Shown here: positions 7,788-31,240 of the stretch, piece by piece | Layout of the letters: each line of letters opens with the position of its first letter | Position numbering within the stretch: the stretch's first letter is position 1 | From: Escherichia coli | GTDB lineage: Bacteria > Pseudomonadota > Gammaproteobacteria > Enterobacterales > Enterobacteriaceae | NCBI RefSeq assembly: GCF_003334765.1 | Contig: NZ_QOWT01000031.1 | Strand: one strand, 5' to 3' | Length of the DNA: 47,728 nucleotides | Notes under the pieces: model-generated | Seen by the model: only the letters and a program-made list of their open reading frames with translations | Told to the model about the DNA's origin: nothing | Databases searched by the model: none | Position numbers and translations under genes: made by a program

Positions 7788-8092
7788 TGACCACATTTAC
7801 CAATAAAGAACTGATTAAAGAAATCAAAGAACGAATCAGCAGCCTAGAGGTTCGAGACGATATTGAGCGCCGTGCTTATGAAATCGCACTCGTATCTCTG
7901 GAAGTAGAGCCAGATGAACGCGAAGCCTATGAATTATTCATGGAAAAGCGTTTCGGTGACTTAGTAGATCGTCGGAGAGTAAAAAACGGCGATAACGAAT
8001 ACATGGCATGGGATATGACTCTCGGTTGGATCGTCTGGCAGCAACGAGCTGGTATCCATTTTTCAACAATGACACAGCAAGAGGTGAAATAA
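7787..8092 (+). CDS. yfdT: YfdT-like prophage protein (101 aa)
   Basis: ORF; its stop overlaps the xis ATG (TAATG). Confidence 0.5.
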   Translation: MTTFTNKELIKEIKERISSLEVRDDIERRAYEIALVSLEVEPDEREAYELFMEKRFGDLVDRRRVKNGDNEYMAWDMTLGWIVWQQRAGIHFSTMTQQEVK

Positions 8093-8463
8093 TGGAGCCA
8101 TACAGCCTCACACTCGATGAGGCCTGTCAGTTTCTTAAGATATCCAGACCAACCGCCACCAACTGGATACGAACAGGCCGCCTACAGGCAACACGTAAAG
8201 ATCCAACCAAGCCAAAATCTCCTTACCTCACAACACGGCAAGCTTGCATTGCGGCGCTTCAGTCTCCGCTGCATACTGTCCAGGTGAGCGCGGGTGATGG
8301 CATAACAGAGGAAAGAAAATGTCACTCTTCCGCAGAAATGAAATATGGTATGCCTCGTATTCGCTCCCGGGCGGGAAACGAATTAAGGAATCTCTTGGCA
8401 CAAAGGACAAGCGGCAAGCTCAGGAGTTGCACGACAAGCGAAAAGCAGAACTCTGGCGAGTAG
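8092..8463 (+). CDS. Excisionase (Xis)-like DNA-binding protein; reading frame runs 145 nt into the integrase gene, possibly C-terminally altered
   Basis: N-terminal about 75 aa resemble excisionase HTH ([26 protein letters not shown]); the rest overlaps int in another frame. Confidence 0.5.
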
Positions 8464-9482
8464 AAAAGCTAGGGGATTTACCTGATGTCACTTTTGAAGA
8501 GGCCTGCCTAAGATGGCTTGAGGAAAAAGCTGATAAAAAATCTCTCGATTCAGATAAAAGCCGGATTGAGTTCTGGCTTGAACATTTTGAGGGTATAAGG
8601 CTTAAAGATATCTCGGAGGCAAAGATTTACTCTGCTGTAAGCAGAATGCATAACAGAAAGACGAAAGAAATATGGAAACAGAAAGTTCAGGCCGCCATCA
8701 GGAAAGGTAAAGAACCGCCTGTTTATGAACCAAAGCCAGTATCAACTCAGACAAAGGCAAAGCATCTTGCCATGATAAAGGCCATTCTCCGTGCTGCAGA
8801 ACGCGACTGGAAGTGGCTGGAAAAAGCGCCTGTCATCAAGATACCAGCGGTCAGAAACAAGCGAGTCAGATGGCTGGAAAAGGAGGAAGCAAAACGCCTT
8901 ATTGATGAGTGCCCCGAACCACTGAAATCTGTCGTCAAGTTTGCGCTGGCAACTGGTCTGAGAAAGTCGAACATCATAAATCTGGAATGGCAACAAATCG
9001 ACATGCAGCGACGAGTTGCCTGGGTGAATCCAGAAGAGAGCAAATCAAACCGCGCCATTGGTGTGGCGCTGAACGATACCGCCTGTAAAGTGTTGCGTGA
9101 TCAAATAGGCAAGCATCACAAATGGGTGTTTGTACATACCAAGGCGGCTAAGCGAGCAGATGGAACATCAACGCCTGCGGTCAGGAAGATGCGCATCGAC
9201 AGCAAGACATCATGGCTATCAGCTTGTCGTCGTGCAGGAATTGAAGATTTCCGTTTCCATGACCTCAGACACACCTGGGCAAGCTGGCTGATCCAGTCAG
9301 GCGTCCCATTATCTGTGCTTCAGGAAATGGGCGGATGGGAGTCCATAGAAATGGTTCGTAGGTATGCTCACCTTGCGCCTAATCATTTGACAGAGCATGC
9401 AAGGAAAATAGACGACATTTTTGGTGATAATGTCCCAAATATGTCCCACTGTGGAATTATGGAGGATATAAAGAAGGCGTAA
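8319..9482 (+). CDS. intD: Phage tyrosine integrase (DLP12 IntD-like, 387 aa)
   Basis: C-terminal catalytic motifs of tyrosine recombinases ([14 protein letters not shown]); ends 16 bp from the tRNA-Arg 3' end. Confidence 0.9.
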
Positions 9483-9497
9483 CTGATTGAATTGTAA

Positions 9498-9574
9498 TGG
9501 CGCGCCCTGCAGGATTCGAACCTGCGGCCCACGACTTAGAAGGTCGTTGCTCTATCCAACTGAGCTAAGGGCGC
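9498..9574 (-). tRNA. argU: tRNA-Arg (anticodon UCU)
   Basis: 77-nt reverse-complement match to a cloverleaf with anticodon loop CU-UCU-AA, T-arm GGTTCGAATCC and 3' CCA; prophage attachment site. Confidence 0.9.
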
Positions 9575-22786: not shown

Positions 22787-22800
22787 CTGGTGCTCTATTC

Positions 22801-22960
<160 letters not shown>

Positions 22961-22980
22961 CAAATGTCTAATGCCTACGA

Positions 22981-23874
22981 CTACAGCGAAATACAGGTCC
23001 CCGCTTCGCCCGCCAGCGTCTCTTCAATTCGCGATAACGCCCCAATCCACGCGGGTTTACCACGGCTTCTGACATAACCACTCACCGCCGTTACCTTCGG
23101 CCCCATCGAACCATCGGCTTTGGCAAATGGCGCTAACTCATCCGGTGTGGCATGGCGAATGGCGCGTTGCTGCGGCGTTCCCCAGTTTTCATATACCGCA
23201 TCAGCATCAGTGAGGATCACCAGCCCATCGGCGTTAATCTGCTCAGCGAGCAACGCAGCAGCGAGATCTTTATCAATCACCGCTTCACTCCCTGCCCCAT
23301 CTTCCGTCACAGGCACACCGCCGCCGCCACTGCAAATCACCACATGCCCCTCTTTGAGCAACAACTCGATGGCTTCGCTGTCGAGAATTTTACGCGGTTG
23401 CGGAGACGCCACCACCCGGCGCAAATATTTACCATCACGTTTCATCTGCCAGCCGTAAGCCGCTTCCAGTGCCTCTTGTTCTTCTGGCTGATAAACCGGA
23501 CCAATAAATTTCTCTGGCTGCAAAAACGCCGGATCATCAGGCGAAACCTCAATGCGCGTCAGCACCGTCGTCACGGGCGGCATCTGCGGCTGTGCGCTCA
23601 AACTCTGTGCCAGCATATAGCCAATCATCCCCTGGCTTTCCGCCACCAGCACATCCAGCGGATACGGTTCTACCTCTTTCCACGCCAGATTCTGCAATGC
23701 CAGCAGCCCCACCTGCGGCCCGTTGCCGTGAACAATCGCCAGCCGATAAGAACGGGCCAGGCGCGCCAGCGCGGGTACAGCACTGGCGATATTGCGATAT
23801 TGATTTTCTGCCGTCAGCGCCTCGCCGCGCTGGAGTAAGGCGTTGCCCCCAAGAGCTACAACCAGTGTTTTCAT
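22981..23874 (-). CDS. ybcF: Carbamate kinase-like protein
   Basis: 297-aa ORF with carbamate-kinase N-terminus ([18 protein letters not shown]). Confidence 0.85.
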
Positions 23875-24686
23875 GGTGTTCCTTGTAATAATTGTTGACC
23901 AAGCCAGAACCCCAGCAGCGTATCTGCCCCTGACGTGTGCCCCAGCGCCAGCAGCGAATCAATCGCAACAGCGGTACGTTTCGGGCAACTCAGAGCATGA
24001 ACAAAGTGCAGGAGTGGCGAGGCGAAATATCCTTGCGCGGCGTAGCGTAAATAACTGACGCTCACCGCTGTGGTAACGAGTTGAAGATTGTCGGAACAGG
24101 CAAAAAACTGGCGACCAGAGCGCGCATCTAAAGCGCCATAATACCAGGCCGCCAGCAGCATTCCGCTCAGCGTATCATCATGACTTGGCGTTAATCCGGG
24201 TCCTTTACCCAGCCAGTGCCGCCAGTCGGTCTTAACGCCATTGAGCGCGGCCTGAAAACAGTGACGAAACTGGCGTAATTCAGCGGGCAGCGGATCGCTT
24301 GCCGCCATCGCCAGTGGCCCGAAAAGCCCGGTTTCCTCCGCGCGTTGCATCCATGCAGCTGCAAGCGGTTGAGGATGCGCAGGCGGCGTAATACGCAGCA
24401 AACAATAACGCTGTGGCTGTTTAACCGTGAAACGCCCGAGGCGAATCCCTTGAGCCACAACCTGCGGTCGTTCATTGCCGCATAATCCACCGCATAACGC
24501 ATCGAATTGCGCGCGGCGAAGCACCCATCCTCCGGGGCCGAAACCACTACCCTTACGATGCAGCGTTAACAGTTCGCCGCTTTCCGTCATCAGGTTAATC
24601 GCCCGTCGCCACACTCCCGCTAACCGCCAGGACTGGCGATAATTCGGTGCGCTACTACTGGCAAGCAGAGGATGGATGATCGTCAT
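23871..24686 (-). CDS. ylbF: YlbF (DUF2877 family)
   Basis: 271-aa product from internal ATG; overlaps ybcF start by 4 nt. Confidence 0.75.
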
Positions 24687-24696
24687 TGTGCGTTCC

Positions 24697-25956
24697 TCAA
24701 CCAATCCCCATGCTTTCAGCCAGTGCTTCCAGCGCCTGTTCAAAACACGCCAGCGGTGCCCGCACGGTGCCTGCGCCAATCTGCCCGATCCCCGCCTCTT
24801 TATGGGCGATACCGGTATTGATGAGTGGCGTAATACCGGTTTCTACCACGCGACGAATGTCCAGTCCCAGGCAGGCGCCCTGAAAATCCCAGCTTGGGAT
24901 CTGCAACTGCATATTGCGTTCAAGGTAAATTTCCGCCATCTCTTCAGATACCGCCCTGGCCGCTTCCATGCCACCCGCACCGACAAAGCGCGTTACGCCA
25001 GGCGCTGCGATCATTGCCGCACCTCCGATACCAAAGGTTTCGGTAATCGCGCTATCGCCCATATCCGGGTTCGCCTGCTCCTGCGAGAAGCCGGTGAAAA
25101 ACAGACCTTGCGGAGTGTTTACAGGCGCAGTAAACCAGCGTTCACCCAGCCCGCTTACCCGAATCCCGAACATATTGCCGTTGCGGGTCATAGCCGTAAC
25201 GATGCTGCCTGCGCGGATCATCGCGCCAGCATCCATCGCCGCCTTGCAGTAGGCCATCGCGAGGTTGAGGAAGAACTGATCGGTCACGCTGAGGAAATCC
25301 ATCACTTCCGCAATGTGCTGTTTATCATGATCGAGGCGAGCAATTTGTGGGGCCAGCGTACGCATTAACAGTGCTGAGGAAGCAATATTGCGTTGATGGA
25401 ACTCATCGCCCATGGTAATGCCCTGCGCCATCATCGCCGTGAGATCGATACCGTGCTCCATGCGCCCCAGCGCCGCGCTTAATACTGGCATTAACACATC
25501 GCGCATCCAGCGATGGCGAGTCAGGACATCTTCGCCATAAGCGCCAAAACGCATCACTTTGCCGATACCTTCGTTGAGGTTGCAGTACGCCCGGTTGCCG
25601 TCGGTCACGTTCTCGACCACCAGCATCGGCATACTGGCAGAAGTAATACCGCCCATTGGCCCGACGGCATTCACATGGTGACAAGGAATGAAGTTCACTT
25701 CCCCCTGCTCCAGTATTGCCAGCGCCTGCGCTTCATCTTTCGCCCAACCTTCGAACAGACATGCGCCCACGCACGCCCCTTTCATAGGTCCGGTCATCTC
25801 CTGCCAGCGCATTGGCGGCCCGGCGTGAAGCAGTGTTTTGCCCTGGTTTAGTTCGCTGATAAGTGAAGAAGCCGGTTGCACATCCAGCCAGTGTGGACGA
25901 GCGCGACGAATTTGTTCGATAACCGCAGCATTGGCTTGCGCCACTGATGTAAACAT
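24697..25956 (-). CDS. ylbE: YlbE (DUF1116 family), uninterrupted 419-aa form
   Basis: Single intact ORF. Confidence 0.8.
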
Positions 25957-25965
25957 GGGAACCCC

Positions 25966-27633
25966 TTATTGCAAACGTTCTAATAAACGAGCCAGTTTTT
26001 TATTGCCGCCGGCGACTGGCGACCATTGGTAATGCACAACCGGTTTGCTGGCGCTTTGTAGCTCCAGCGCAAAGCTGCGTAATCCGATGTTAATCACGGC
26101 GACGTTTTCCAGTAATGACGGTGTGTGTTGCTGAGTGGCAGGCGAAAGCGGACGAATCAGTGCCGCCGCCAGCAAGGTGGCTTCCGGCAGCGAACTCACT
26201 ACCGCGATCCCCGCATCTTCCAGCGTGGCGATTTGCTGCGAGCGGCATTGCGGGTCACGTTCAGTGCCTGTCACCGTGGCAATGGCATACAGTGGTTGAT
26301 TGTCTGAACGCGCAGCACAGGCTTTTTGCCAGGCGCTTACCAGCGAGGCGGCAGGATCGGCGGTCGCACCGAAGCCAATCACGACATCAAGCAGCAATAC
26401 GCGCACTTGCGGTTTAGCGCCGAGATCGGCAATTAACTGATTGCGTAAGGCTGGGTCGATCATCGGATGGGGACGCCCGACGGTGTAGAAATCATCGCCG
26501 AGGTCAATAATCTGGTGACCATCGGCGTCGAGCATCATGCCGTGATGATGGGTATCGTCGGCTTCCACGCCAAGGTGTCCAGCAAGTAATCCCGCCGCTT
26601 CGGCAGCCAGGGTACCGCCGGTATACAAACCGCAAATAAATCCGCTGCTGGCAGGCGTTATCGCGTTACGTCGCGCCGTAACGCGTGAAAGCAGGCAAGC
26701 CAGGCGTGCGGCCTCATCCAGCGAGGAGGCAAACCAGACATTCTCGTCGCGGGCCACCGCCGGGGTATAACCTAAAAACAGCGCCACCGTCGGTTTGCCG
26801 GTTGCTTTCATGGCATTAACAATTTTCAGACGCACAGCTTCGGCAGGCGGTTTTGAAACAAATGCCAGCACTTCGCTTTTCTCGTCTGCACTGAGCATTT
26901 CCAGCGCCGTCAGCGCACTGATGCCGCCCACTTCACGGCTGAGGTCGCGCCCGCCAAGGCCAATCGCGTGAGTAATTCCCTCCCCTGCCAGCGCAATCTG
27001 CGAACACAGTTCCTGAATCCCGGTACCGGAAGCGCCAATGACGCCAATATTGCCTTCCGGCATCACGTTAGCAAAAGCCAGCGGCGTGCCGGCAATCATC
27101 GACGTACCGCAGTCCGGCCCCATCACCAGCAAGCCTTTTTCCCGCGCGCGGCTTTTAAGTTGGATTTCATCTTCCAGCGTGACGTTATCGGAGAACATCA
27201 TCACGTTGAGGTTGCGATCCAGCGCCTGGTTCGCCAGCTCCGCCGCATACTCGCCAGCCACTGAAATCAGCGCCAGACTGGCGTCGGGTAATTTCTGACA
27301 GGCACTGTCCCAGCGACGCACCTGCGTCAACGCCTGGCTGCTGCCTGACCCCTGCGCCAGTTGTTTTAGCGCCTCTTCAAGCTGCTGCATAATCGCCTGC
27401 GCGATCCCCGCATCCGCCGCTTCGCTACGAATTGCCACGCAAATATCGTTCGGCGTGGCGTTATTAAAATCGTCATGCCAGAAACCTGTGGTATCTAATA
27501 ACGCTTTATTGGCGGGCGTACCCATCATTACGGAAACATCATCAACATTTTCTGATTCGCTGAGTTTTCGTGAAATAATCATTAAACTGACCGAATCCTG
27601 AAAACACCCTTTTTTAATAAAGGCGTGGATCAT
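25966..27633 (-). CDS. fdrA: FdrA, acyl-CoA synthetase (NDP-forming)-like protein
   Basis: 555-aa ORF with CoA-binding / succinyl-CoA-synthetase-like sequence. Confidence 0.85.
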   Translation of the reverse strand: MIHAFIKKGCFQDSVSLMIISRKLSESENVDDVSVMMGTPANKALLDTTGFWHDDFNNATPNDICVAIRSEAADAGIAQAIMQQLEEALKQLAQGSGSSQALTQVRRWDSACQKLPDASLALISVAGEYAAELANQALDRNLNVMMFSDNVTLEDEIQLKSRAREKGLLVMGPDCGTSMIAGTPLAFANVMPEGNIGVIGASGTGIQELCSQIALAGEGITHAIGLGGRDLSREVGGISALTALEMLSADEKSEVLAFVSKPPAEAVRLKIVNAMKATGKPTVALFLGYTPAVARDENVWFASSLDEAARLACLLSRVTARRNAITPASSGFICGLYTGGTLAAEAAGLLAGHLGVEADDTHHHGMMLDADGHQIIDLGDDFYTVGRPHPMIDPALRNQLIADLGAKPQVRVLLLDVVIGFGATADPAASLVSAWQKACAARSDNQPLYAIATVTGTERDPQCRSQQIATLEDAGIAVVSSLPEATLLAAALIRPLSPATQQHTPSLLENVAVINIGLRSFALELQSASKPVVHYQWSPVAGGNKKLARLLERLQ

Positions 27634-27949
27634 AACAACTCCTTAAAAATTGCACCCATGGCAATTGCACGAGCAGTGTTAATGTGGCGATTACGGTATC
27701 GATGACAACGAGTAAATAAGGTGATGAATATCACACAGGAATTATTAACAAAAGAATTCAAATAACCGCCAGGCTATTACTCATTATTTTTTAATAAGCG
27801 TGGTTGTTTTAAAAATCAGGTTAAAAGTGAGCGGATTATCAAATAAATTCTAACTATATTTTCTTGCCTGTCTGGATCACATAATCCAGATATTTTCCCT
27901 GTATGTTAATTGCAGTCATGCTTCACACCGTCGTTAAAAAGGAAGACAG
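27634..27949. promoter_or_regulatory. AT-rich divergent control region between fdrA and allD
   Basis: 316-bp non-coding AT-rich region between divergent operons; exact promoter and operator sites not identified here. Confidence 0.35.
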
Positions 27950-28999
27950 ATGAAAATCAGTCGGGAAACACTCCACCAGCTAATTGAGAATAAACTCTGC
28001 CAGGCTGGGTTAAAACGTGAGCACGCTGCAACCGTGGCTGAAGTATTGGTTTACGCCGATGCCAGAGGGATCCACTCTCATGGCGCGGTGCGCGTGGAAT
28101 ACTACGCGGAACGCATTTCAAAAGGCGGCACCAACCGCGAACCGGAGTTTCGTCTTGAGGAAACCGGGCCGTGCTCGGCAATTTTACATGCCGACAATGC
28201 CGCCGGACAGGTCGCGGCGAAAATGGGTATGGAACATGCCATCAAAACCGCCCAGCAAAATGGCGTTGCGGTGGTCGGTATCAGCCGGATGGGTCACAGC
28301 GGCGCAATCTCTTATTTTGTGCAGCAGGCAGCCCGCGCCGGATTCATTGGCATTTCGATGTGCCAGTCCGATCCAATGGTGGTGCCGTTTGGCGGCGCGG
28401 AAATTTACTACGGTACTAACCCCCTGGCCTTTGCCGCGCCGGGAGAAGGCGACGAGATCCTTACCTTTGATATGGCGACTACCGTACAGGCATGGGGAAA
28501 AGTGCTCGACGCCCGCTCGCGTAATATGTCTATCCCGGATACCTGGGCGGTCGATAAAAACGGTGTACCAACAACCGATCCGTTCGCGGTACATGCTCTG
28601 CTCCCCGCCGCCGGGCCAAAAGGGTATGGCCTGATGATGATGATTGACGTCCTCTCAGGCGTCTTACTCGGCTTACCGTTCGGGCGACAGGTTAGTTCGA
28701 TGTATGACGATTTACACGCAGGGCGTAATTTGGGGCAATTACATATAGTTATTAATCCGAACTTTTTCTCCTCCAGCGAATTATTCCGTCAACATCTTAG
28801 CCAGACCATGCGCGAATTAAATGCCATTACCCCCGCGCCCGGTTTTAATCAGGTTTATTATCCCGGACAGGATCAGGATATTAAACAACGCAAAGCCGCC
28901 GTCGAAGGCATCGAAATTGTTGATGATATTTACCAGTATTTAATTTCCGACGCGCTTTATAACACGTCATACGAAACGAAAAATCCCTTTGCGCAATAA
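27950..28999 (+). CDS. allD: Ureidoglycolate dehydrogenase
   Basis: 349-aa ORF. Confidence 0.9.
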   Translation: MKISRETLHQLIENKLCQAGLKREHAATVAEVLVYADARGIHSHGAVRVEYYAERISKGGTNREPEFRLEETGPCSAILHADNAAGQVAAKMGMEHAIKTAQQNGVAVVGISRMGHSGAISYFVQQAARAGFIGISMCQSDPMVVPFGGAEIYYGTNPLAFAAPGEGDEILTFDMATTVQAWGKVLDARSRNMSIPDTWAVDKNGVPTTDPFAVHALLPAAGPKGYGLMMMIDVLSGVLLGLPFGRQVSSMYDDLHAGRNLGQLHIVINPNFFSSSELFRQHLSQTMRELNAITPAPGFNQVYYPGQDQDIKQRKAAVEGIEIVDDIYQYLISDALYNTSYETKNPFAQ

Positions 29000-31052: not shown

Positions 31053-31094
31053 GTCATACCACTCGCCTGATTATTTTTAGCTATGTTGGATTTT

Positions 31095-31121
31095 GCCACG
31101 GTTTATACCGTGGCTTTTTTT
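31095..31121 (+). terminator. Intrinsic terminator after allE
   Basis: GCCACGG/CCGTGGC stem with 6-nt loop followed by T7. Confidence 0.7.
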
Positions 31122-31130
31122 GTAACATTG

Positions 31131-31240
31131 CCTGATGCGCTTCGCTTATCAGGCCTACATGATCTCTGCAATATATAGAATTTGCGCGATTTTCAGGAAG
31201 GATATGGTACTCATGCCGCATCCGGCATGAGTACTGCACT
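31131..31240. repeat. REP-like palindromic units
   Basis: GCCTGATGCGCTTCGCTTATCAGGCCTAC and GTACTCATGCCGCATCCGGCATGAGTAC palindromes. Confidence 0.5.

Follow-up and report, generated by a model that had tools for sequence, protein, structure and literature searches.

Gene organization and protein families of the locus

The window, a 47,728 nt stretch of an Escherichia coli genome (contig NZ_QOWT01000031.1), contains at 22981–27633 four intact minus-strand ORFs, fdrA, ylbE, ylbF and ybcF (allF, allG, allH and allK, respectively), divergent from the allDCE operon (Table 1). The initial annotation had recognized here a four-gene operon beside the allantoin genes, and this description was borne out. 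Intergenic distances were short (9 nt between fdrA and ylbE, 10 nt between ylbE and ylbF), the ylbF stop and the ybcF start overlapped by 4 nt, and each of the four genes was preceded by its own Shine–Dalgarno sequence. In the window itself the proposed co-transcription rests on this spacing; in MG1655, fdrA-ylbE-ylbF-ybcF was shown by RT-PCR to form one transcript (PMC9843812). The ATG at 24686 was taken as the true start of ylbF, being favoured by a GAGGAA RBS and by an alignment of 22 homologues over a longer, mechanically called ORF that reached 24779 from a TTG. The divergent gene is named allD in the identical strains and in MG1655 alike.

Table 1. Positions of genes and other features of the allFGHK region in the window
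Feature	Position	Strand	Remarks
fdrA (allF), oxamic transcarbamylase large subunit	25966..27633	-	Intact ORF, 555 aa
ylbE (allG), oxamic transcarbamylase subunit	24697..25956	-	Uninterrupted ORF, 419 aa
ylbF (allH), oxamic transcarbamylase subunit	23871..24686	-	271 aa
ybcF (allK), catabolic carbamate kinase	22981..23874	-	297 aa
G5 run, ylbE nt 252-256, site of the historical K-12 'frameshift'	25701..25705	-	Sequence read
allD-allF divergent intergenic region with allF promoter	27634..27949	.	316 nt
ybcF-purK spacer with 3 REP (BIME-type) palindromic repeats, 3' end of operon	22787..22980	.	Identical to MG1655
allD, ureidoglycolate dehydrogenase, first gene of divergent allDCE operon	27950..28999	+	349-aa ORF

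FdrA matched NCBIfam NF004760 along its whole length (residues 1–555 of 555; 1043.6 bits, cutoff 433) as well as PDB entry 3DMY, 'Protein fdrA' (E 5.6e-302). YbcF matched the carbamate kinase equivalog NF006926 with 621.1 bits (cutoff 416). YlbE and YlbF had no match in NCBIfam release 20.0 and were assigned by Pfam to PF06545 AllG (E 1.9e-97) and PF11392 AllH (E 2.1e-29), respectively; YlbE also matched a solved homologue, PDB 3CLQ (E 2.9e-111). The gene content given earlier, a carbamate kinase, FdrA and two DUF proteins, was thus correct, but the accompanying statement that no role could be assigned to YlbE and YlbF does not hold: oxamic transcarbamylase (OXTCase; PMC11326118) contains the two proteins as its subunits AllG and AllH, and the Pfam families DUF1116 and DUF2877 are now named AllG and AllH.

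The alignment of 22 AllH sequences contained 28 invariant columns, all of them present in the window protein by construction, since it is a member of the alignment. Invariant motifs included G160-x-G-x-G-L-T-P-x-x-D170-D171 and G249-H-T-S-G-A-D255. A fold search with the predicted AllH model recovered no solved structural relative. A likeness of 'DDxLxG' and 'GADxLxG' in AllH to the anion-hole motif of ribokinase/YjeF_C, noticed by eye, was unsupported in the fold search and was dropped.

Conservation of the operon and the history of ylbE

A 5.7 kb stretch spanning the operon was covered to at least 80 % in 5,406 of 5,426 complete E. coli genomes. Owing to the REP repeats in the ybcF-purK spacer, the median number of places matched in a genome was 24. 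Among the natural strains listed, at least 20 of human, pig, poultry and cattle origin carried the stretch with 100 % identity, promoter included. The 26 kb surrounding the locus was collinear with MG1655 (178 mismatches, no gaps). A prophage remnant lies at argU, approximately 13 kb from the operon, which it leaves untouched.

The MG1655 allFGHK genes (b0518, b4572, b0520 and b0521) were identical to those of the window in gene order, lengths and spacing, in the divergent allD and in the REP-filled 3' spacer, the differences being point polymorphisms only. There were 99 nucleotide differences across the four genes and three in the promoter region. At the protein level, differences amounted to 10 of 555 residues in FdrA, three of 419 in YlbE, four of 271 in YlbF and two of 297 in YbcF, and no stops or frameshifts relative to MG1655 were found in the four genes. 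Outside E. coli, Rahnella has the same layout (glxK-allE-allC-allD/allF-allG-allH-kinase), and an Anaerolineae MAG carries AllF, AllG and AllH in one gene cluster, with an AllH that is 30 % identical. The linkage of allF, allG and allH is maintained across phyla.

ylbE had been described as uninterrupted in the window, which the reading of the G5 run confirmed, and as split by a frameshift in MG1655, which proved incorrect. In the current MG1655 reference (NC_000913.3) ylbE is an intact CDS of the same length (419 aa; YP_009029994.1) that likewise carries G5 at nt 252–256, positions 548,608–548,612 of that record, and the window gene differs from it by 21 nt and three aa. The frameshift of the literature is the absence of one G at ylbE nt 253 from the old MG1655 sequence U00096.2 (547,831 +G; PMC4404585, PMC5460176, PMC5210515). 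In older papers ylbE is listed among the pseudogenes of MG1655, with +G as the repair (PMC5460176, PMC3045373). The pseudogene allele of U00096.2 and of W3110 (NC_007779.1) lies at the same position of the same gene, its flanking 74 nt being identical to the window, but it has a G4 run, which would end the reading frame at codon 87, whereas G5 leaves the frame open in the window. In silico removal of one G likewise brought the ylbE frame to a stop at codon 87.

A search of 5,418 complete E. coli genomes with 75-mers representing the two alleles placed G5 in the band of at least 99 % identity in 3,783 records. Exact matches to G4, among the matches listed, came from four records, namely W3110 and three K-12-derived assemblies. 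NZ_CP032667.1, a separate assembly of MG1655, showed one difference from the G4 query (98.7 %), as expected for G5.

It is very unlikely, then, that an intact ylbE is peculiar to the strain of the window and that the operon is crippled in K-12 by a frameshifted pseudogene. Such a reading has on its side the older papers and the W3110 RefSeq record, in which ylbE is still flagged 'frameshifted'. It is, however, refuted for the current reference by the intact gene in NC_000913.3, and neither the independent MG1655 assembly nor the restriction of the listed exact G4 matches to K-12-derived records agrees with it; moreover, U00096.2 matched no real isolate (PMC5210515). Wild-type MG1655 also forms oxamate from allantoin and deletion of ylbE (allG) abolishes this (PMC11326118), so the K-12 gene works. 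The supposed K-12 frameshift is the G4-versus-G5 run of the superseded U00096.2, surviving in the W3110 record and in three K-12-derived assemblies. That ylbE is intact in the window reflects its state in virtually every E. coli, and the current MG1655 reference is no exception. A 'ylbE frameshift in K-12' is consequently unfit as a strain marker, as it belongs to the superseded U00096.2 and to the W3110 records.

Predicted role in anaerobic allantoin catabolism and regulation

The region is almost certainly the core-genome allFGHK operon of E. coli, encoding what would be the 'oxamate branch' of allantoin degradation under anaerobic conditions, to which it contributes the final two steps. The locus is known and ordinary, its function having been worked out experimentally between 2022 and 2025: Kim & Kim (2022, 2024, 2025) identified the products of MG1655 allFGHK as an oxamic transcarbamylase and a catabolic carbamate kinase. 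Purified AllF-AllG-AllH had OXTCase activity, which was assayed in reverse, with carbamoyl phosphate and oxamate, oxalurate not being sold commercially (PMC11326118). Single and triple deletions of allF, allG and allH abolished oxamate formation, and complementation of the allG single-deletion mutant failed (PMC11326118). YbcF of K-12 is a carbamate kinase (PMC9843812). The test on allantoin that had been suggested for this locus, growth of deletion mutants, has already been published for K-12 (PMC11326118).

These experiments concern K-12. In the strain of the window, the operon is likely to be functional, as had been proposed, and the same pathway steps may be expected from the 98–99 % identity of its proteins to those of K-12, the intact frames and the identical gene organization. 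AllD would convert ureidoglycolate to oxalurate; AllF-AllG-AllH would then catalyse the reversible reaction of oxalurate and Pi to carbamoyl phosphate and oxamate, and AllK would transfer the phosphate of carbamoyl phosphate to ADP, giving ATP, NH3 and CO2. Transcription would proceed from the allD-allF spacer and would require both AllS, conveying the allantoin signal, and ArcA-P, conveying anaerobiosis.

In K-12, both AllS and ArcA are activators that bind at the allF promoter, and EMSA located AllS binding to a fragment at −203/−144 and ArcA-P binding to a fragment at −142/−83 (PMC12535856); these correspond to positions 27777–27836 and 27716–27775 of the window, respectively. The spacer has the same length as in MG1655 and differs from it by SNPs at −230, −169 and −135. 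Two of these fall inside the EMSA fragments, −169 A>C in that bound by AllS and −135 T>C in that bound by ArcA-P. A scan of the promoter region for consensus sigma-70 sites gave three, compared with 3.3 expected by chance, and downstream of ybcF the scan detected no consensus terminator, the promoter and terminator scan performing no better than on shuffled sequence.

The position of the SNPs at −169 and −135, and the fact that FdrA has the most substitutions of the four proteins, could be taken to mean that the operon is silently impaired in this lineage through promoter changes or missense changes such as the 10 in FdrA. There is very little likelihood of this. In FdrA a phenotype is known for one residue, D296, which is wild type here, the four genes are free of stops and frameshifts, and the complete identity of the 5.7 kb stretch among the listed strains is in keeping with ordinary polymorphism at a conserved locus. 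A functional allFGHK operon, as in K-12, remains the preferred reading. The locus thus represents conserved and characterized nitrogen metabolism of E. coli, by which the last allantoin nitrogen would be released anaerobically as NH3 together with one ATP. The result carries little weight as a discovery, and its main use lies in correcting the history of ylbE and the labels attached to these genes; 'DUF1116', 'DUF2877' and the PGAP name 'acyl-CoA synthetase FdrA', which is still in use, are outdated designations of the AllG, AllH and AllF subunits.

Comparison with succinyl-CoA synthetase and classical transcarbamylases

Residues 118–290 of FdrA aligned to residues 66–238 of SucD (E 4e-11), covering nucleotide- and CoA-binding Rossmann-type domains. 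The alignment ended eight residues short of the SucD phospho-histidine, FdrA continuing as PAVARDENVW, and the GHAGA phospho-histidine motif was not found in FdrA. Against succinyl-CoA ligase alpha models FdrA scored 52.4 bits, far below the cutoff of 336. FdrA differs from SucD further in having an extra domain at the N-terminus and Ligase_CoA a second time, and in depending on AllG and AllH instead of a beta subunit of the SucC type. When YlbE and YlbF were compared by BLASTP with SucC and SucD of E. coli, only chance-level matches (E > 1) were returned, so a SucC-like role of AllG has no sequence support.

That FdrA acts on its own as an acyl-CoA synthetase or oxamate:CoA ligase, with YlbE and YlbF as unrelated proteins that have no assigned function, is very improbable: its Pfam domains (CoA_binding and Ligase_CoA), the SucD alignment and the PGAP name point that way, but the low ligase score, the missing phospho-histidine motif and the linkage of the three genes across phyla do not, and FdrA by itself had no OXTCase activity, all three genes being needed (PMC11326118). 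By sequence comparison, AllF is succinyl-CoA-synthetase-alpha-like and resembles SucD and the NDP-forming acyl-CoA synthetase superfamily, with an alignment to SucD that ends before the phospho-histidine loop. By analogy, its chemistry may plausibly resemble that of SucD, an activated acyl or carbamoyl bond being split by phosphorolysis.

With the classical transcarbamylases (the ATCase PyrB, the OTCases ArgI/ArgF, and YgeW) AllFGH has the type of reaction in common, in which a carbamoyl group passes reversibly between phosphate and the nitrogen of an amine or amide. The carbamoyl-phosphate-binding and Asp/Orn-binding domains of the OTCase/ATCase families were absent from the NCBIfam and Pfam matches of all four proteins. 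The classical enzymes are homotrimers and share no sequence kinship with AllFGH, which is built of three different subunits (PMC11326118).

Organization and conservation of the operon

Four uninterrupted ORFs were found exactly where the initial annotation had placed fdrA, ylbE, ylbF and ybcF as intact genes (now allF, allG, allH and allK). The mechanical ORF list extended ylbF to a TTG at 24779, but the ATG at 24686 is taken as the true start, since a GAGGAA ribosome-binding site precedes it and the N-termini of 21 homologues fall at the same point. The genes are separated by 9 and 10 nt and then overlap by 4 nt, and each is preceded by its own Shine–Dalgarno sequence. The divergent neighbour allD begins at 27950 and is followed by allC and then allE. 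On the 3′ side, three REP/BIME palindromic repeats fill the 194 nt ybcF–purK spacer (22787–22980), which is identical in MG1655; these repeats probably account for the large number of secondary BLAST places in each genome (median 24). A consensus intrinsic terminator was not found 3′ of ybcF.

Features of the operon and of other parts of the window
Feature	Position	Strand	Remarks
fdrA (allF)	25966–27633	minus	uninterrupted ORF, 555 aa
ylbE (allG)	24697–25956	minus	uninterrupted ORF, 419 aa
ylbF (allH)	23871–24686	minus	uninterrupted ORF, 271 aa
ybcF (allK)	22981–23874	minus	uninterrupted ORF, 297 aa
STnc480 and ES036/CssrF matches	31059–31193	minus	Rfam sRNA families, gathering-level; 87.6 bits and 38.1 bits (the latter barely over threshold)
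argU	9498–9574	minus	tRNA-Arg, anticodon tct; integration site of lambdoid remnant
Prophage integrase	8319–9482		
cI-like repressor	3643–4317		
cII-like protein	2751–3320		
Prophage tail and tail-fibre fragments	422–1126, 1414–2754		directly adjoin immunity genes

The expected family models were matched by FdrA (1043.6 bits against model NF004760, cutoff 433) and YbcF (621 bits against the carbamate kinase equivalog NF006926, cutoff 416), and YlbE and YlbF matched Pfam AllG (PF06545, E 1.9e-97) and AllH (PF11392, E 2.1e-29), respectively. The window comes from the E. coli chromosome; the 5.7 kb stretch round the operon was 100 % identical to many strains, e.g. ML35, PK6 and UMNF18, and at least 80 % of it was covered in 5,406 of the 5,426 complete E. 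coli genomes.

Strain PK6 was 99.98 % identical over 9496–47728 and had no match to the remaining stretch (1–9495), a rearranged lambdoid prophage remnant at argU; at this locus in PK6, it is nfrBA-ybcH-envY that lies upstream of the tRNA. The direct junction of tail and tail-fibre fragments with immunity genes suggests large internal deletions in this remnant. By collinearity with the PK6 annotation, the Rfam matches should lie in the allE–glxK spacer, and approximately 44300–47728 is predicted to hold a truncated copy of ylbG, fragments of RHS repeats, ybbC and a frameshifted rhsD represented by its 3′ end.

The G run in ylbE

The initial annotation had set the intact ylbE, correctly described as a single 419 aa frame, against a frameshift in K-12 MG1655. 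In the current reference (NC_000913.3), ylbE is likewise intact (b4572, YP_009029994.1), a normal 1,260 nt CDS of equal length that differs from the window gene by 21 nt and 3 aa; fdrA, ylbF and ybcF are also equal in length, and window 18313–44313 aligned with MG1655 530000–556000 with 178 mismatches and no gaps. The one claim of distinctiveness rests on a superseded reference sequence.

The frameshift is real history. In the old MG1655 reference, the G run at ylbE nt 252–256 was one base too short, a difference listed as ‘547,831 +G’ and accompanied by 547,694 A>G. Resequencing studies noted the additional G repeatedly, either as something that set real stocks apart from the reference or as the restoration of ‘an intact ancestral gene’ (PMC4404585, PMC3045373, PMC5460176). 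U00096.2 corresponded to no specific isolate and was therefore replaced in GenBank by U00096.3 in 2013 (PMC5210515). The window carries five Gs (25701–25705); removal of one in silico stopped the frame at codon 87. Among the matches listed across 5,418 genomes, the four-G 74-mer was matched exactly in only four, W3110 (NC_007779.1), whose record marks ylbE as ‘frameshifted’, and the K-12-derived CIT, LIM and CAR, whereas 3,783 records fell in the ≥99 % identity band for the five-G 75-mer, the rest showing mostly SNP differences. Intact ylbE is therefore the rule in E. coli and sets no boundary between this strain and others.

Function and regulation

Published work settles the function of the operon, including the roles of YlbE and YlbF, which the initial annotation had considered unassignable from sequence: fdrA, ylbE and ylbF jointly encode oxamic transcarbamylase, YlbE and YlbF being AllG and AllH (PMC11326118), and ybcF encodes the catabolic carbamate kinase (PMC9843812). 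Oxamate formation from allantoin was lost or nearly lost in every single deletion of allF, allG or allH (1.2 mM remaining for allH) and in the triple deletion, and returned fully only with allFGH together; activity was assayed in the reverse direction because oxalurate was unavailable (PMC11326118). When MG1655 was grown on allantoin under anaerobic conditions, RT-PCR revealed a single transcript spanning fdrA-ylbE-ylbF-ybcF (PMC9843812). Allantoin with anaerobiosis induced the operon >38-fold, which required AllS and ArcA, bound upstream of allF at −203/−144 and −142/−83, respectively (PMC12535856). These steps were shown in K-12; because the window operon shares its sequence identity and organization and has intact frames, we infer that they apply here too.

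The allD–allF spacer (27634–27949) is equal in length to that of MG1655, with three SNPs at −230, −169 and −135 from the allF ATG, of which −169 lies inside the AllS EMSA fragment and −135 inside the ArcA-P fragment. We read these as probably ordinary polymorphism, since the 5.7 kb stretch that includes them was 100 % identical in at least 20 natural isolates among the matches listed. The operon is ordinary, conserved and by now experimentally characterized.

Relationship to known proteins and gene clusters

AllF (PDB 3DMY) aligned over residues 118–290 with residues 66–238 of E. coli SucD (E 4e-11), but its scores against succinyl-CoA ligase models were far below the cutoffs. The alignment breaks off eight residues ahead of the SucD phospho-histidine (GHAGA), and no comparable motif was found where AllF continues as PAVARD296ENVW. 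The segment replacing this loop region (FdrA residues 288–300) contains the site of D296Y, which increased oxamate production in an evolved strain (PMC8550087); codon 296 in the window (26746–26748) encodes the wild-type D. An uncharacterized AllG homologue has a solved structure (PDB 3CLQ), and no relative of AllH was found in the PDB by sequence.

In Rahnella, glxK-allE-allC-allD is divergent from allF-allG-allH-kinase, as in the window. More distantly, an Anaerolineae MAG contig (SCUK01000082.1, 654–8852) carries AllF-AllG and, further along the same cluster, AllH (30 % identical), with neighbouring amidase, cyclase, molybdopterin-dehydrogenase-type, amidohydrolase and xanthine/uracil permease genes; carbamate kinase was absent from the 16.8 kb shown. 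There, the three proteins may act in another N-heterocycle or ureide pathway. The grouping of AllF, AllG and AllH in both Rahnella and the Anaerolineae MAG fits an obligate three-subunit enzyme.
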